Shown here: positions 1 through 5,090 of the stretch, piece by piece
Position numbering within the stretch: the first letter of the stretch is position 1
Layout of the letters: each line of letters begins with the position of its first letter
Virus record (IMG/VR): IMGVR_UViG_2698536348_000006
Span: 1 to 5,090 of that record
Strand: one strand, 5' to 3'
From: a virus
Lineage: Duplodnaviria > Heunggongvirae > Uroviricota > Caudoviricetes
Length of the DNA stretch: 5,090 bases
The notes under the pieces: generated by a model
Told to the model about the DNA's origin: nothing
The model's database searches: none
The model's input: the letters and a program-made list of their open reading frames with translations, nothing else
Position numbers and translations under genes: made by a program

Positions 1-1755
1 GCCACGAAAGGCTTTGATGAGCAGACCCGTCGCCTGAAAGAAAACATGGGGACACTGGAGACCTGGGCGGATAAAACAGGGAAGGCATTCAAATCGATGT
101 GGGATGCCATTCTGGATATCGGTCGTCCTGAGTCCTCAGCGGATATGCTCGCCAGTGCACAGAAGGCATTTGATGAGGCGGATAAAAAATGGCAGTGGTA
201 CCAGAGCCGGAGCCAGCGCCGGGGAAAAACCGCCTCTTTTCGTGCGAACCTTCAGGGTGCATGGGATGACCGGGAAAATGCCCGTCTGGGGCTGGCAGCG
301 GCCACGCTGCAGTCGGATATGGAAAAAGCCGGTGAACTGGCCGCCAGGGACCGGGCCGAACGGGACGCATCACAGCTGAAGTATACCGGAGAGGCGCAGA
401 AGGCGTATGAGCGTCTGCTGACGCCGCTGGAGAAATATACCGCCCGTCAGGAAGAACTGAATAAGGCCCTGAAAGACGGGAAAATCCTGCAGGTGGATTA
501 CAACACGCTGATGGCGGCGGCGAAAAAGGATTATGAATCGACGCTGAAAAAGCCGAAGTCGTCAGGAGTCAAAGTGTCAGCCGGTGAGCGCCAGGAAGAC
601 CGGGCACATGCTGCCCTGCTGGCGCTTGAAACTGAGCTCCGGACGCTGGAGAAGCACAGCGGTGCGAATGAGAAAATCAGCCAGCAGCGTCGCGATTTAT
701 GGAAAGCGGAAAATCAGTATGCGGTCCTGAAAGAGGCTGCCACGAAACGCCAGTTATCTGAGCAGGAAAAATCCCTGCTGGCCCATGAGAAAGAGACGCT
801 GGAGTACAAACGCCAGCTGGCTGAGCTTGGCGACAAGGTTGAACACCAGAAACGGCTGAATGAGCTGGCACAGCAGGCGGCGCGGTTTGAACAGCAGCAG
901 AGCGCGAAGCAGGCAGCCATCAGCGCAAAAGCCCGCGGCCTCACCGACCGTCAGGCGCAGCGGGAGTCGGAAGAGCAGCGCCTTCGTGACGTGTACGGTG
1001 ATAATCCGGCTGCGCTGGCGAAGGCCACATCTGCACTGAAGAACACCTGGTCTGCGGAGGAGCAGCTTCGTGGAAGCTGGATGGCCGGGCTGAAGTCCGG
1101 CTGGGGCGAGTGGGCGGAAAGTGCGACGGACAGTTTTTCGCAGGTTAAAAGCGCGGCCACGCAGACCTTTGACGGTATTGCACAGAATATGGCAGCGATG
1201 CTGACCGGCAGCGAACAGAACTGGCGTGGTTTCACCCGTTCTGTGCTCTCCATGCTGACAGAGATTTTTCTGAAGCAGGCGATGGTGGGGATAGTCGGGA
1301 GTATCGGCAGCGCCATTGGCGGTACTTTCGGTGGTGGTGCGTCTGCCTCCACGGGGACGGCCATTCAGGCTGCGGCGGCGAACTTCCATTTCGCGACCGG
1401 GGGATTTACGGGGACGGGGGGTAAATATGAACCTGCGGGGATTGTCCACCGCGGGGAGTTTGTCTTCACGAAGGAGGCAACCAGCCGGATTGGCGTCGGC
1501 AACCTGTATCGTCTGATGCGCGGGTATGCGGAAGGTGGTTATGTGGGCGGTGCCGGAAGTCCGGCGCAGATGCGGCGGGCGGAAGGCATTAGTTTTAATC
1601 AGAACAATCACGTGGTGATTCAGAACGACGGCACCAACGGACAGGCGGGGCCGCAGCTGATGAAGGCGGTGTATGACATGGCCCGCAAGGGGGCGCAGGA
1701 TGAGATTCAGGCGCAGATGCGTGATGGCGGCGTCTTTTCCGGAGGCAGGCGATGA
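1..1755 (+). CDS. H: Phage tail tape measure protein (lambda gpH-like), 5'-truncated by window edge
   Basis: Frame 1 is open from base 1 to TGA at 1753-1755 (track ORF 46..1755 is the first in-frame ATG only). Ala/Gln/Glu/Arg/Lys-rich coiled-coil-like N-terminal part, Gly-rich segment (IVGSIGSAIGGTFGGGASASTGTAIQ...GGFTGTGG, ~nt 1290-1430) and C-terminal ...HVVIQNDGTNGQAGP...RDGGVFSGGRR match my recall of the lambda gpH C-terminus. Stop overlaps the next gene start (ATGA). Confidence 0.9.
   Translation, partial: ATKGFDEQTRRLKENMGTLETWADKTGKAFKSMWDAILDIGRPESSADMLASAQKAFDEADKKWQWYQSRSQRRGKTASFRANLQGAWDDRENARLGLAAATLQSDMEKAGELAARDRAERDASQLKYTGEAQKAYERLLTPLEKYTARQEELNKALKDGKILQVDYNTLMAAAKKDYESTLKKPKSSGVKVSAGERQEDRAHAALLALETELRTLEKHSGANEKISQQRRDLWKAENQYAVLKEAATKRQLSEQEKSLLAHEKETLEYKRQLAELGDKVEHQKRLNELAQQAARFEQQQSAKQAAISAKARGLTDRQAQRESEEQRLRDVYGDNPAALAKATSALKNTWSAEEQLRGSWMAGLKSGWGEWAESATDSFSQVKSAATQTFDGIAQNMAAMLTGSEQNWRGFTRSVLSMLTEIFLKQAMVGIVGSIGSAIGGTFGGGASASTGTAIQAAAANFHFATGGFTGTGGKYEPAGIVHRGEFVFTKEATSRIGVGNLYRLMRGYAEGGYVGGAGSPAQMRRAEGISFNQNNHVVIQNDGTNGQAGPQLMKAVYDMARKGAQDEIQAQMRDGGVFSGGRR
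1741..1745 (+). promoter_or_regulatory. Shine-Dalgarno-like GGAGG upstream of M start
   Basis: GGAGG at 1741-1745, 6 nt before ATG at 1752; lies inside the 3' end of H, consistent with translational coupling. Confidence 0.5.
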
Positions 1756-2081
1756 AAACATTTCGCTGGAAAGTGAAGCCGGATATGGAGGTGAACTCGC
1801 AGCCATCGGTGCGTGAAGTGCGTTTTGGTGATGGGTATTCGCAGCGTATGGCGGCGGGGCTGAATGCTGACCTGAAAACATACCGTGTGACGCTTTCCGT
1901 GACCCGGGAGGAGGCCCGGCATCTGGAAGCGTTCCTGGCAGAGCACGGTGGCTGGAAGGCATTTTTGTGGAAGCCACCCTATGCATACCGGCAGATAAAG
2001 GTGACCTGTGCCGGGTGGTCTGCGCGGGTCGGGATGTTGCGCGTTGAGTTCAGCGCGGAGTTTAAGCAGGTGGTGAACTGA
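1752..2081 (+). CDS. M: Phage minor tail protein M (lambda gpM-like), 109 aa
   Basis: ATG 1752 overlaps the H stop (ATGA). Protein MKTFRWKVKP...VRFGDGYSQR...HGGWKAFLWKPPY...RVEFSAEFKQVVN closely resembles lambda gpM as I recall it, same length (109 aa). Stop TGA 2079-2081 overlaps the L start. Confidence 0.9.
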   Translation: MKTFRWKVKPDMEVNSQPSVREVRFGDGYSQRMAAGLNADLKTYRVTLSVTREEARHLEAFLAEHGGWKAFLWKPPYAYRQIKVTCAGWSARVGMLRVEFSAEFKQVVN

Positions 2082-2779
2082 TGCAGGACATTCATGAAGA
2101 AAGCCTGAACGAGTCGGTTAAATCAGAGCAGTCACCGCGGGTGGTGCTCTGGGAAATTGACCTGACGGTGCAGGGCGGTGAGCGGTATTTTTTCTGCAAT
2201 GAGCTGAATGAAAAAGGGGAGCCGGTCACCTGGCAGGGGCGGGAATATCAGGCATACCCGATTGACGGCAGTGGCTTTGAGATGAACGGGAAGGGCAGCA
2301 GTGCCAGACCGTCGCTGACGGTGTCGAATCTGTTTGGTCTGGTCACCGGGATGGCGGAGGACCTGCAGAGCCTGGTGGGGGCCACGGTGGTCCGCCGCCG
2401 GGTGTATGCCCGTTTTCTGGATGCGGTGAATTTTGTGGCGGGCAATCCGGAAGCGGACCCGGAGCAGGAGCTGAGCGACCGCTGGGTGGTGGAGCAGATG
2501 TCAGAGCTGACGGCCATGACAGCCTCGTTTGTGCTGGCCACACCGACCGAGACGGACGGGGCGCTGTTTCCCGGTCGCATCATGCTGGCGAACACCTGTA
2601 TGTGGACCTACCGCTCTGATGAGTGTGGTTACACGGGCGGGGCTGTGGCGGATGAGTTCGATAAACCCACCACGGATATCCGTAAGGACAGATGCAGCAA
2701 GTGCATGCGCGGGTGTGAGATGCGCGGCATGGTGGCTAATTTTGGCGGTTTCCTTTCCATTAATAAACTTTCGCAGTAA
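2081..2779 (+). CDS. L: Phage minor tail protein L (lambda gpL-like), 232 aa
   Basis: ATG 2081 overlaps the M stop (TGATG). Protein MQDIHEESLNE...VVLWEIDL...GERYFFCNE...GRIMLANTCMW...DRCSKCMRGC...NFGGFLSINKLSQ matches lambda gpL in length and motifs, including the Cys-rich C-terminal region. Stop TAA 2777-2779. Confidence 0.9.
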   Translation: MQDIHEESLNESVKSEQSPRVVLWEIDLTVQGGERYFFCNELNEKGEPVTWQGREYQAYPIDGSGFEMNGKGSSARPSLTVSNLFGLVTGMAEDLQSLVGATVVRRRVYARFLDAVNFVAGNPEADPEQELSDRWVVEQMSELTAMTASFVLATPTETDGALFPGRIMLANTCMWTYRSDECGYTGGAVADEFDKPTTDIRKDRCSKCMRGCEMRGMVANFGGFLSINKLSQ

Positions 2780-2861
2780 ATCCCGGTTTATGACACAGAC
2801 TGAATCAGCGATTCTGGCGCATGCCCGGCGGTGTGCGCCTGCGGAGTCGTGCGGCTTCGTG
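2675..2861 (+). repeat. 187-bp L-3'end / K-5'start junction unit, copy 1 (identical to copies 2 and 3)
   Basis: Direct comparison by eye: 2675-2861 = 3970-4156 = 4565-4751 with no mismatches I could find. Spans the last ~35 codons of L, the 10-nt intergenic spacer and the first 24 codons of K. Confidence 0.85.
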
Positions 2862-2924
2862 ATAAGCACGCCGGAGGGGGAGACTGGTGTATTCCCCGGT
2901 CTACCATATCGCCATTCAGAATGA
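2790..2924 (+). pseudogene. K: Truncated tail assembly protein K stub (about 31 native codons, then unrelated sequence to a stop)
   Basis: ATG 2790 follows the L stop by 10 nt, as for copies at 4085 and 4680. First codons MTQTESAILAHARRCAPAESCGFVISTPEGE match the lambda gpK N-terminus; homology ends near 2882 and the frame stops at TGA 2922-2924 (44 codons). The JAMM HSHPGG motif present in the other K copies is absent. Confidence 0.7.
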
Positions 2925-3042
2925 CGGGACTAATGGCCAGATAGGGCCGGAGGCGGCAGGCAGCCTTGTGCAACTGATTGACCAGCGGGTGCAGGCGGTG
3001 ATGCTGTCCATGCGACGTGACGGAGGAATACTGAGTGGCTGA
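2884..3042 (+). pseudogene. 3' remnant of a second, divergent tape-measure (gpH-like) gene with no start
   Basis: Frame 1 translation ...HIAIQNDGTNGQIGPEAAGSLVQLIDQRVQAVMLSMRRDGGILSG* ending at TGA 3040-3042 parallels the C-terminus of H1 (HVVIQNDGTNGQAGP...RDGGVFSGGRR*) but is clearly a different allele. It is in a different frame from the K stub, has no upstream ORF, and is followed directly by an M homolog as at the H1/M1 junction. Left boundary approximate. Confidence 0.6.
3022..3027 (+). promoter_or_regulatory. Shine-Dalgarno-like GGAGGA upstream of M2 start
   Basis: GGAGGA at 3022-3027, 7 nt before GTG at 3035; located in the 3' end of the tape-measure remnant, mirroring the H1/M1 arrangement. 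Confidence 0.4.
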
Positions 3043-3376
3043 GATAAAAACGCTGCATCTGGTCCCGCGTGAAGGGATGCAGGTGAGTGAGAAGCCGTCG
3101 GTGGTGAGGGTGCGGTTTGGTGACGGTTATGAACAGCGCCGCCCCACAGGGCTGAATCCTCAACTGAAGACGTTTCAGGCGGTGTTCCGGGTGACGGATG
3201 AGTCAACCCGGCGCTGGCTGGAAGAGTTTTTATCGTGGCATGGTGGTTACCGTGCCTTTTTGTGGCGACCGCCGAAACATAACCGGACGGTGAGGGTTGT
3301 GTGCCGTGAGTGGAGTGTCACGGATAATGCCCGGTACAGTGATTTCAGTTGCACGATAGAGCAGGTGGTGAACTGA
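3035..3376 (+). CDS. M: Phage minor tail protein M homolog, divergent allele (113 aa if GTG start)
   Basis: ORF in frame 2 ending TGA 3374-3376, overlapping the L2 start. Shares gpM core motifs with M1 (PSV.RVRFGDGY.QR, HGG..AFLW.PP, ..QVVN C-terminus) but roughly half the residues differ. Start uncertain: GTG 3035 has an SD at proper spacing; in-frame ATG at 3077 is the alternative. Confidence 0.75.
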   Translation: MAEIKTLHLVPREGMQVSEKPSVVRVRFGDGYEQRRPTGLNPQLKTFQAVFRVTDESTRRWLEEFLSWHGGYRAFLWRPPKHNRTVRVVCREWSVTDNARYSDFSCTIEQVVN

Positions 3377-4074
3377 TGCAGGATATTCACGAAGAAAGCC
3401 TGAACGAGTCGGTTAAATCAGAGCAGTCACCGCGGGTGGTACTCTGGGAAATCGACCTGACGGTACAGGGCGGTGAGCGGTATTTTTTCTGCAATGAGCT
3501 GAATGAAAAAGGGGAGCCGGTGACCTGGCAGGGGCGGAAGTACCAGGCATACCCGATTGACGGCAGTGGCTTTGAGATGAACGGGAAGGGCAGCAGTGCC
3601 AGACCGTCGCTGACGGTGTCCAATCTGTTTGGTCTGGTCACCGGGATGGCGGAGGACCTGCAGAGCCTGGTGGGGGCCACGGTGGTCCGCCGCCGGGTGT
3701 ATGCCCGTTTTCTGGATGCGGTGAATTTTGTGGCGGGCAATCCGGAAGCGGACCCGGAGCAGGAGCTGAGCGACCGCTGGGTGGTGGAGCAGATGTCAGA
3801 GCTGACGGCCATGACAGCCTCGTTTGTGCTGGCAACACCGACGGAGACGGACGGGGCGCTGTTTCCTGGTCGCATCATGCTGGCGAACACCTGTATGTGG
3901 GATTACCGGGGAGATGAATGCGGGTATAACGGTCCTGCGGTGGCGGATGAGTTCGACAACCCCACCACGGATATCCGTAAGGACAGATGCAGCAAGTGCA
4001 TGCGCGGGTGTGAGATGCGCGGCATGGTGGCTAATTTTGGCGGTTTCCTTTCCATTAATAAACTTTCGCAGTAA
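3376..4074 (+). CDS. L: Phage minor tail protein L, second copy (232 aa)
   Basis: ATG 3376 overlaps the M2 stop (TGATG) exactly as at 2079-2083; same 699-nt length as L1. Protein differs from L1 at only a few residues (REYQ/RKYQ, CMWTYRSDECGYTGG/CMWDYRGDECGYNGP, DKP/DNP). The track's 3349 start is an upstream in-frame ATG and probably not the real start. Stop TAA 4072-4074. Confidence 0.85.
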   Translation: MQDIHEESLNESVKSEQSPRVVLWEIDLTVQGGERYFFCNELNEKGEPVTWQGRKYQAYPIDGSGFEMNGKGSSARPSLTVSNLFGLVTGMAEDLQSLVGATVVRRRVYARFLDAVNFVAGNPEADPEQELSDRWVVEQMSELTAMTASFVLATPTETDGALFPGRIMLANTCMWDYRGDECGYNGPAVADEFDNPTTDIRKDRCSKCMRGCEMRGMVANFGGFLSINKLSQ

Positions 4075-4156
4075 ATCCCGGTTTATGACACAGACTGAAT
4101 CAGCGATTCTGGCGCATGCCCGGCGGTGTGCGCCTGCGGAGTCGTGCGGCTTCGTG
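3970..4156 (+). repeat. 187-bp L-3'end / K-5'start junction unit, copy 2
   Basis: Identical to 2675-2861 (offset 1295) and 4565-4751 (offset 595). Confidence 0.85.
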
Positions 4157-4669
4157 GTGAGAACGCCGGAGGGGGAGCGGTATATCCCTTGTGTGAATAT
4201 TTCCGCAGAGCCGGAGGCGTATTTTCGTATTGCGCCGGAAGACTGGCTGCAGGCACAGATGCAGGGGGAGATTGTGGCACTGGTCCACAGTCATCCCGGT
4301 GGTCTGCCCTGGCTGAGCGAGGCCGACCGGCGGCTGCAGATAAAAAGTGCACTGTCCTGGTGGCTGGTCTGCCGGGGGGACATTCATAAATTCCGCTGTG
4401 TGCCACATCTGACAGGACGGCGCTTTGAGCACGGGGTGACGGACTGTTACACGCTGTTCCGGGATGCCTACCATCTGGCGGGAATTGATATGCCGGATTT
4501 TGAGCGTGAGGATGACTGGTGGCGCAACGGTCAGAACCTTTACCTGGACAATATGGCGGTCACAGATATCCGTAAGGACAGATGCAGCAAGTGCATGCGC
4601 GGGTGTGAGATGCGCGGCATGGTGGCTAATTTTGGCGGTTTCCTTTCCATTAATAAACTTTCGCAGTAA
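4085..4669 (+). CDS. K: Chimeric tail assembly protein K: K N-terminal ~160 aa (JAMM/MPN domain) fused in frame to the last ~35 aa of L
   Basis: ATG 4085, 10 nt after the L2 stop. Residues 1 to ~160 (MTQTESAILAHARRCAPAESCGFVVRTPEGERYIPCVNI...VHSHPGGLPWLSEADRR...DCYTLFRDAYHLAGIDMPDFEREDDWWRNGQNLYLDNMA) follow lambda gpK. From ~4565 the DNA is identical to the L 3' end, giving C-terminus ...TDIRKDRCSKCMRGCEMRGMVANFGGFLSINKLSQ* (TAA 4667-4669). The C-terminal part of gpK is missing. Appears as the tail of track ORF 3824..4669. Confidence 0.6.
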   Translation: MTQTESAILAHARRCAPAESCGFVVRTPEGERYIPCVNISAEPEAYFRIAPEDWLQAQMQGEIVALVHSHPGGLPWLSEADRRLQIKSALSWWLVCRGDIHKFRCVPHLTGRRFEHGVTDCYTLFRDAYHLAGIDMPDFEREDDWWRNGQNLYLDNMAVTDIRKDRCSKCMRGCEMRGMVANFGGFLSINKLSQ

Positions 4670-4751
4670 ATCCCGGTTTATGACACAGACTGAATCAGCG
4701 ATTCTGGCGCATGCCCGGCGGTGTGCGCCTGCGGAGTCGTGCGGCTTCGTG
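4565..4751 (+). repeat. 187-bp L-3'end / K-5'start junction unit, copy 3 (L part follows K codons, not an L gene)
   Basis: Identical to the other two copies; here the L-derived portion is fused downstream of K codon ~160 rather than ending a full L gene. Identity with copy 1 continues to 4772 (= 2882). Confidence 0.85.
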
Positions 4752-5090
4752 ATAAGCACGCCGGAGGGGGAGTGGTATATCCCTTGTGTGAATATTTCTG
4801 CAGAGCCGGAGGCGTATTTTCGTATCGCACCGGAAGACTGGCTGCAGGCACAGATGCAGGGGGAGATTGTGGCACTGGTCCACAGTCATCCCGGTGGGCT
4901 GCCCTGGCTGAGCGAGGCTGACCGGCGGCTGCAGATAAAAAGCGCACTGCCCTGGTGGCTGGTCTGCCGGGGTGACATTCACAAATTCCGCTGCGTGCCG
5001 CACCTGACGGGACGGCGCTTTGAGCACGGGGTGACGGACTGTTACACCCTGTTCCGGGATGCCTACCATCTGGCGGGGATAACGCTGCCG
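4680..5090 (+). CDS. K: Tail assembly protein K (lambda gpK-like), 3'-truncated by window edge
   Basis: ATG 4680, 10 nt after the preceding stop; frame open to the window end (137 codons). Translation MTQTESAILAHARRCAPAESCGFVISTPEGEWYIPCVNISAEPEAYF...VHSHPGGLPWLSEADRR...GVTDCYTLFRDAYHLAGITLP matches the gpK N-terminus; about 95% nt identical to 4085-4560 with mostly synonymous changes. Confidence 0.85.
   Translation, partial: MTQTESAILAHARRCAPAESCGFVISTPEGEWYIPCVNISAEPEAYFRIAPEDWLQAQMQGEIVALVHSHPGGLPWLSEADRRLQIKSALPWWLVCRGDIHKFRCVPHLTGRRFEHGVTDCYTLFRDAYHLAGITLP

Follow-up and report, generated by a model that had tools for sequence, protein, structure and literature searches.

A three-fold L/K gene boundary in an Escherichia coli prophage contig is probably an assembly chimera of lambdoid tail modules

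In a 5,090-bp contig of prophage genes, the boundary between the tail genes L and K is present three times, each time with the same 187 nt. A preliminary description regarded this 187-nt core as an identical island between diverged flanks. The question raised by the locus is whether such an island reflects special conservation of the core, recombination among phages or the way in which the contig was put together. The whole stretch of DNA that was analyzed, hereafter the window, is the complete 5,090-bp contig CYDI01000111.1 of the draft assembly GCA_001285245.1 from E. coli, as identified by an exact protein match. A literature search for the accession GCA_001285245.1 returned nothing. The contig is continuous and free of Ns, carries only multi-copy prophage genes and is cut inside a gene at both ends. 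Based on the evidence below, it seems likely, with a probability of about 0.8, that the three-copy arrangement is an artefact of assembly or scaffolding and not a feature of an E. coli genome.

Layout of the contig and comparison of the three copies

The genes of the window were recognized as lambda-type tail genes from their open reading frames (ORFs) and Pfam families, and the series starts three times. The layout consists of H-M-L-K start, a single A, H' end-M'-L'-K' codons 1-160, another single A, and L end-K''. The individual features are as follows.

1-2882, plus strand: segment A, with H-M-L and codons 1-31 of K
1-1755, plus strand: 3' part of the tape-measure gene H in segment A (ORF; PF09718, Tape_meas_lam_C), running off the contig start
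1752-2081, plus strand: M, minor tail protein, lambda-like allele, in segment A (ORF; PF05939)
2081-2779, plus strand: L copy 1, minor tail protein of 232 aa (PF05100), with Cys173/182/205/212
2606-2665 (against 3901-3960), plus strand: substitution cluster between L and L', 20 of 36 mismatches, residues 176-195
2675-2861, plus strand: core copy 1, the last 34 L codons and stop, a 10-nt spacer and the first 24 K codons
2675-2882, plus strand: block R, 208 nt, the 3' terminal part of segment A, identical to 4565-4772
2790-2882, plus strand: 5' fragment of K, 31 codons (ORF), cut off at join J1
2883, no strand: join J1, a lone A between K (...GGGGGAG) and H' (CTGGTGTATT...)
2884-4563, plus strand: segment B, with the H' end, M', L' and codons 1-160 of K'
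2884-3042, plus strand: 3' end of H', about 50 codons of a different tape-measure gene, at the start of segment B; deposited as the 51-aa CTX03491.1
3035-3376, plus strand: M', a second allele family, in segment B, found in 12,870 index blocks
3376-4074, plus strand: L' copy 2 (PF05100), 97.4% amino acid identity to L
3970-4156, plus strand: core copy 2, identical to copies 1 and 3
4085-4563, plus strand: K' codons 1-160, JAB/MPN domain (PF14464), at the end of segment B
4085-4669, plus strand: K'::L C-terminus fusion ORF, 194 aa, in frame, made by join J2
4564, no strand: join J2, a lone A between K' (...GGTCAC) and the L 3' end (GATATCC...)
4565-5090, plus strand: segment C, with the last 34 codons of L, then K''
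4565-4669, plus strand: 3' fragment of L, last 34 codons and stop, at the start of segment C, identical to L
4565-4751, plus strand: core copy 3, identical to copies 1 and 2
4565-4772, plus strand: second use of block R, identical to 2675-2882
4680-5090, plus strand: K'' codons 1-137 (ORF; PF14464), running off the contig end

The JAB/MPN family PF14464 matches both K' and K'', and all three copies of K are cut short before the NlpC/P60 part. PF00877 (NlpC/P60) is present in the full-length 247-aa relatives of K.

The three copies of the core are identical base for base, as had been described. The length of the perfect stretch around the core depends on the pair compared: 196 nt for copies 1 and 2 (2666-2861), 187 nt for copies 2 and 3 (3970-4156 = 4565-4751) and 208 nt for copies 1 and 3 (2675-2882 = 4565-4772). 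The picture of an identical island with diverged flanks applies to copies 1 and 2 but not to copies 1 and 3. Because copy 3 starts at one join and copy 1 stops at the other, these two copies have no homologous flanks. Specifically, the left edge of the core (2675/4565) is the point at which copy 3 begins after the non-homologous join to K' at 4563/4564, and copy 1 runs to 2882 and is followed there by 3' sequence from another tape-measure gene. The identity between copies 1 and 3 is bounded on either side by a structural breakpoint and not by divergence.

Copies 1 and 2 differ at 36 positions over the homologous 818 nt (2065-2882 against 3360-4177). Substitution clusters adjoining the core had been noted and are present in this comparison, with 20 of the 36 mismatches in 2606-2665 and another three in 2862-2867. 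If mismatches were spread evenly, a perfect run of at least 196 nt would be found with P = 0.0014, so the patchiness between copies 1 and 2 is real. A perfect block longer than the core, of 212 nt, lies inside L (2327-2538). The neighboring gene is much less alike, with 59% nucleotide and 44% amino acid identity between M and M' against 97.4% amino acid identity between L and L'. A mosaic boundary at 2065/3360 lies 16 nt before the L genes start; there, the identity between the copies jumps to about 96% and the population diversity falls from 0.38 to 0.07. A 20-nt inverted repeat, 85% complementary, between the coding sequences of L (2344-2363/3639-3658) and K (4282-4301/4877-4896) is seen four times only through the duplication of both genes, and it is probably a chance match.

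Coding content and conservation of the core

The core codes for residues 199-232 of L (DIRKDRCSKCMRGCEMRGMVANFGGFLSINKLSQ), the stop codon, a 10-nt spacer and residues 1-24 of K. L belongs to the family of lambda gpL, as indicated by the match to PF05100 and by four conserved Cys ligands. In the structure of lambda gpL, four Cys residues are ligands of a [4Fe-4S] cluster, and Cys173/182/205/212 of L match them (PMC10721106, which credits Tam et al. 2013 for the biochemistry). Cys205 and Cys212 of this set lie within the core. The coding content of the core is the same as that of the gpL C-terminal [4Fe-4S] domain and the gpK N-terminal JAB/MPN domain of lambda. Unlike in lambda gpL/gpK, the third copy here is an isolated L tail placed in frame behind a truncated K', an arrangement found in no other record. 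The substitution cluster at 2606-2665 falls in the Fe-S loop of gpL, between Cys173 and Cys205, and it brings five changes (T176D, S179G, T185N, G187P and K195N). It also coincides with a local peak of diversity in the population alignment.

A search of the core against phage genomes, which had been proposed as a check, returned 100% identity in at least 11 records of Stx-converting or lambdoid phages. Among complete-genome E. coli records, 506 match the core at 99% identity or more, compared to 2 and 5 for the adjacent 187-mers of the contig. These low flank counts are due to rare alleles in this contig, and a 187-mer from the body of L (2339-2525) is found in 530 E. coli records. Prophage loci gave a similar result. 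The set comprised 92 loci (10 M'-bearing places plus 2 plus 80 further prophage loci); the exact core is present in 4 of them, and exact blocks in L and M' are present in 17-20. In an alignment of 78 distinct loci, made by MAFFT with fast settings, nucleotide diversity ranges from 0.04 to 0.09 in the core, much as in the remainder of L (0.03-0.09). The loci were selected by similarity to L', which lowers the diversity of L as a whole but has no bearing on how the core compares with the remainder of the gene. The same alignment gives 0.2-0.38 for the H' end and M' and 0.09-0.16 for K. Moreover, about 19% of the sites in the core are polymorphic at a frequency of at least 5%.

The claim that the core is more conserved than its surroundings is therefore not borne out: by diversity, by exact-block counts and by its 530 records, the body of L is equally or more conserved and widespread. 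The core is a common allele, made up of the tail of a generally conserved gene and the first 72 nt of K, and it is not an island. The mosaicism of lambdoid prophages is well known, with L conserved and M and K variable. In this ordinary sense the earlier suggestion of recombination or a shared mosaic block stands, since the mismatches are clustered, perfect runs of 212 and 196 nt occur and the block is 100% identical in Stx phages that are otherwise diverged; in the sense of a special island it does not. Ordinary mosaicism of this lambdoid type accounts for the patchy identity seen between the two real versions.

The two joins and their position on branch points

All of the H'-type parents examined match the contig from 2884 on, directly after the lone A of J1, and the 3' end of L begins at 4565, directly after the lone A of J2. 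Both joins lack an overlap of k-mer length, and each can be read as a blunt join plus one orphan A. J1 is out of frame, and J2 is in frame. The orphan A of J2 could be a genuine K' allele, as AGGCTT follows the same K' 31-mer in 9 of 36 loci; the end of K' would then be at 4565, which is not a branch point. Read in this way, J2 is a clean junction of the kind that genuine illegitimate recombination can leave; its motif, CAC(A/G)G, provides an exact microhomology of 1 nt, or an imperfect one of 4 in 5. J1 requires either a filler base or an allele that is present in 1 of 75 loci.

Neither join has a counterpart in the collections searched. In 5,426 complete E. coli genomes, no match spans J1. 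J2 is never covered by one BLAST piece in the complete genomes; its two sides match separately, at a distance of about 600 nt and in the normal L-K order. Aligned to these 5,426 genomes, the window as a whole covers only about 3,265 nt of a single, normal H-M-L-K module. Likewise, a 2,001-nt query that includes both joins occupies only about 1,680 nt, folded back on itself, in all top phage records of the 50,697 searched. An exact 32-mer over J1 and an exact 35-mer over J2 are absent from viral, species-representative genome and metagenome collections, which is weak evidence because these three collections hold few E. coli draft assemblies. The K'::L fusion protein is on record in contig CYDI01000111.1 only. 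M', by contrast, is found in 12,870 index blocks, and the order H-M-L-K-I-J is normal in 10 of the 10 places listed.

The positions of the joins were compared with the sites at which paralogous prophages diverge. For this, a de Bruijn graph with k=31 was built from the 92 independent prophage loci, and the terminal 31-mers of each segment were checked for alternative neighboring bases. All four of the segment ends (2882, 2884, 4563 and 4565) are branch positions at k=31. The background branch frequencies are 0.129, 0.024, 0.067 and 0.061, whose product is about 1.3e-5, or 1.5e-3 if only the two unambiguous downstream starts are counted; the test was devised with the junctions already known. 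In the 78-sequence alignment, the sites just past each segment end have minor-allele frequencies of about 18-57%, and their neighbors are often invariant. A branch point is also found at the true left end of the contig, and P0009, an incomplete K of 160 aa that comes from other draft assemblies, stops at residue 160 just as K' does. Contig ends in graph assemblers fall on branch sites, and biological breakpoints have no reason to do so. A comparison of segment ends with sites of paralogue divergence offers a cheap, read-free flag for chimeras.

The best identities of 1-2883, 2884-4563 and 4564-5090 in the 5,426 complete genomes are 97.4%, 98.5% and 99.6%, respectively, in different strains. 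A single complete genome with all three segments at about 100% was not found among the 5,426 complete E. coli genomes. Strain E110019 was considered as a parent and rejected; both flanks of the 187-nt core are perfect there, but only locally and at two different prophages. Each segment may itself be an in-silico mosaic of paralogous prophages, or else a new natural mosaic.

Origin of the arrangement

Two explanations treat the arrangement, or the core itself, as biological. If the structure were real, two illegitimate recombinations, by microhomology or template switching, would have taken place between two lambdoid prophages of the strain. M-L-K would thereby have become partly triplicated in a nested manner, and a gene would have arisen in which gpK (JAB) is fused in frame to the gpL Fe-S tail. 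The unbroken contig is consistent with this, as is J2, which can be read as a clean, in-frame junction with its five-base motif, and STEC-type E. coli hold up to 13-18 copies of these genes, so that many partners would be available. However, two independent non-homologous junctions would be needed within 1.7 kb, and both would have to fall exactly on prophage branch sites and together bound a single identical block of 208 nt. Neither of them is found in the 5,426 complete genomes or the 50,697 phage records, and J1 would still need its filler base or rare allele. Furthermore, recombination between prophages located at different chromosomal sites would imply large chromosomal rearrangements. 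Taken together, these points make a real structure unlikely.

The other explanation gives the core a function of its own at the L/K boundary, as a DNA or RNA element that acts, for instance, in translational coupling or as a recombination hotspot; selection at the nucleotide level would then preserve its identity as the flanks drift. The abundance of the core relative to the adjacent 187-mers, its complete identity in several Stx phages and the substitution clusters on both sides would fit such an element. Against it, the core is as diverse as the rest of L, about a fifth of its sites vary, its exact sequence is found in fewer loci than the blocks in L and M', and the L-body 187-mer is equally widespread. 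In addition, the L-K boundary is not uniform among prophages, as some have 1.6 kb of inserted genes there, or an indel of 5 nt. On this evidence, a functional element is very improbable. The insertion is found in one complete genome, CP169003.1 (L010:11057-12652), where genes for an Arc-like repressor and a P22-type antirepressor occupy about 1.6 kb between the L stop and the K start, within the spacer that the core region contains. The 5-nt length polymorphism lies in the L-K spacer or at the start of K and separates loci L006 and L008 from L002 (K start 11046 vs 11051).

The preferred reading is that the contig is a chimera, a head-to-tail chain of three assembler pieces that would derive from multi-copy lambdoid prophage tail modules. 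Three observations point to an artefact: the joins are unique, the segment ends lie on branch points, and a repeat node is used twice around an inserted piece. Segments A and C are probably one real locus of the form X-R-Y, because the terminal 208 nt of A are the initial 208 nt of C and block R is exact in only 1 of the 92 independent loci. Segment B would be the paralogous module of a second prophage, set between the two uses of R. The 187-nt core would then be the part of R that L'/K' of the second prophage happens to share, and the patchy identity around it would reflect mosaic recombination among lambdoid prophages.

The preliminary description had also pointed out that an assembler could use such a core to mis-join reads. 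This was right in spirit, as two of the pieces have the 208-nt block, with the core inside it, as their common end. The proposed path does not fit, as the joins are blunt, at 2883/4564, and lie outside the core. On these grounds, a simple de Bruijn mis-walk by way of the core was rejected. With joins that share no k-mer, such a mis-walk is insufficient, and a scaffolding or gap-closing step must be assumed. We infer that a scaffolder may have estimated a negative gap between the homologous pieces when it linked them, and that a placeholder of one base was later turned into A; the GapFiller paper and a scaffolder comparison do not document one-base joins, so the conversion of a placeholder to A is our own suggestion. 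A fresh tandem duplication in vivo was also rejected, on the basis of the 59% nucleotide identity of M and M' and the 36 differences between L and L' in 818 nt.

In several respects, the contig resembles the repeat-induced chimeric contigs of short-read drafts, such as those from the lambdoid prophages of STEC and EPEC. It is short and consists entirely of multi-copy prophage genes, its pieces end on branch points between paralogues, a repeat is reused, and the junctions are present in one assembly only. It differs from typical contigs of this kind in that its joins are blunt and bear a single A, and are marked neither by a stretch of Ns nor by a common k-mer. The case is of value mainly as a warning that chimeric contigs in public draft assemblies can mimic a conserved island or a signal of gene conversion. 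Two of its proteins have been deposited, namely the fusion ORF 4085-4669 (CTX03548.1 / WP_114052205.1 / UniRef100_UPI0006A0BF66, 'C40 family peptidase') and the 51-aa H' stub 2887-3042 (CTX03491.1, 'tail length tape measure protein'). The fusion CTX03548.1 and the stub CTX03491.1 are probably artefactual database entries.

In gene order, Pfam families and patchy identity, the contig is like the H-M-L-K-I-J modules of lambda, of Stx-converting phages and of the prophage pools of O157, O26, O111 and O103 strains. It also shares the features of mosaic lambdoid modules, in which M is highly diverged, L is nearly identical, substitutions are clustered and perfect blocks are common to Stx phages. 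In contrast, natural lambdoid modules have one copy of each gene, and none of the complete genomes or phage records has the start of K followed by the end of H, or the middle of K followed by the end of L. Some of the related modules contain additional genes or mobile elements. An IS21-family element lies between I and J in one of them (L002:12894-15196), an IS91-type element is found in the tape-measure region of another (L006:6995-8547), and several related prophages (L005/L007/L009/L012) carry a sodC gene between I and J.
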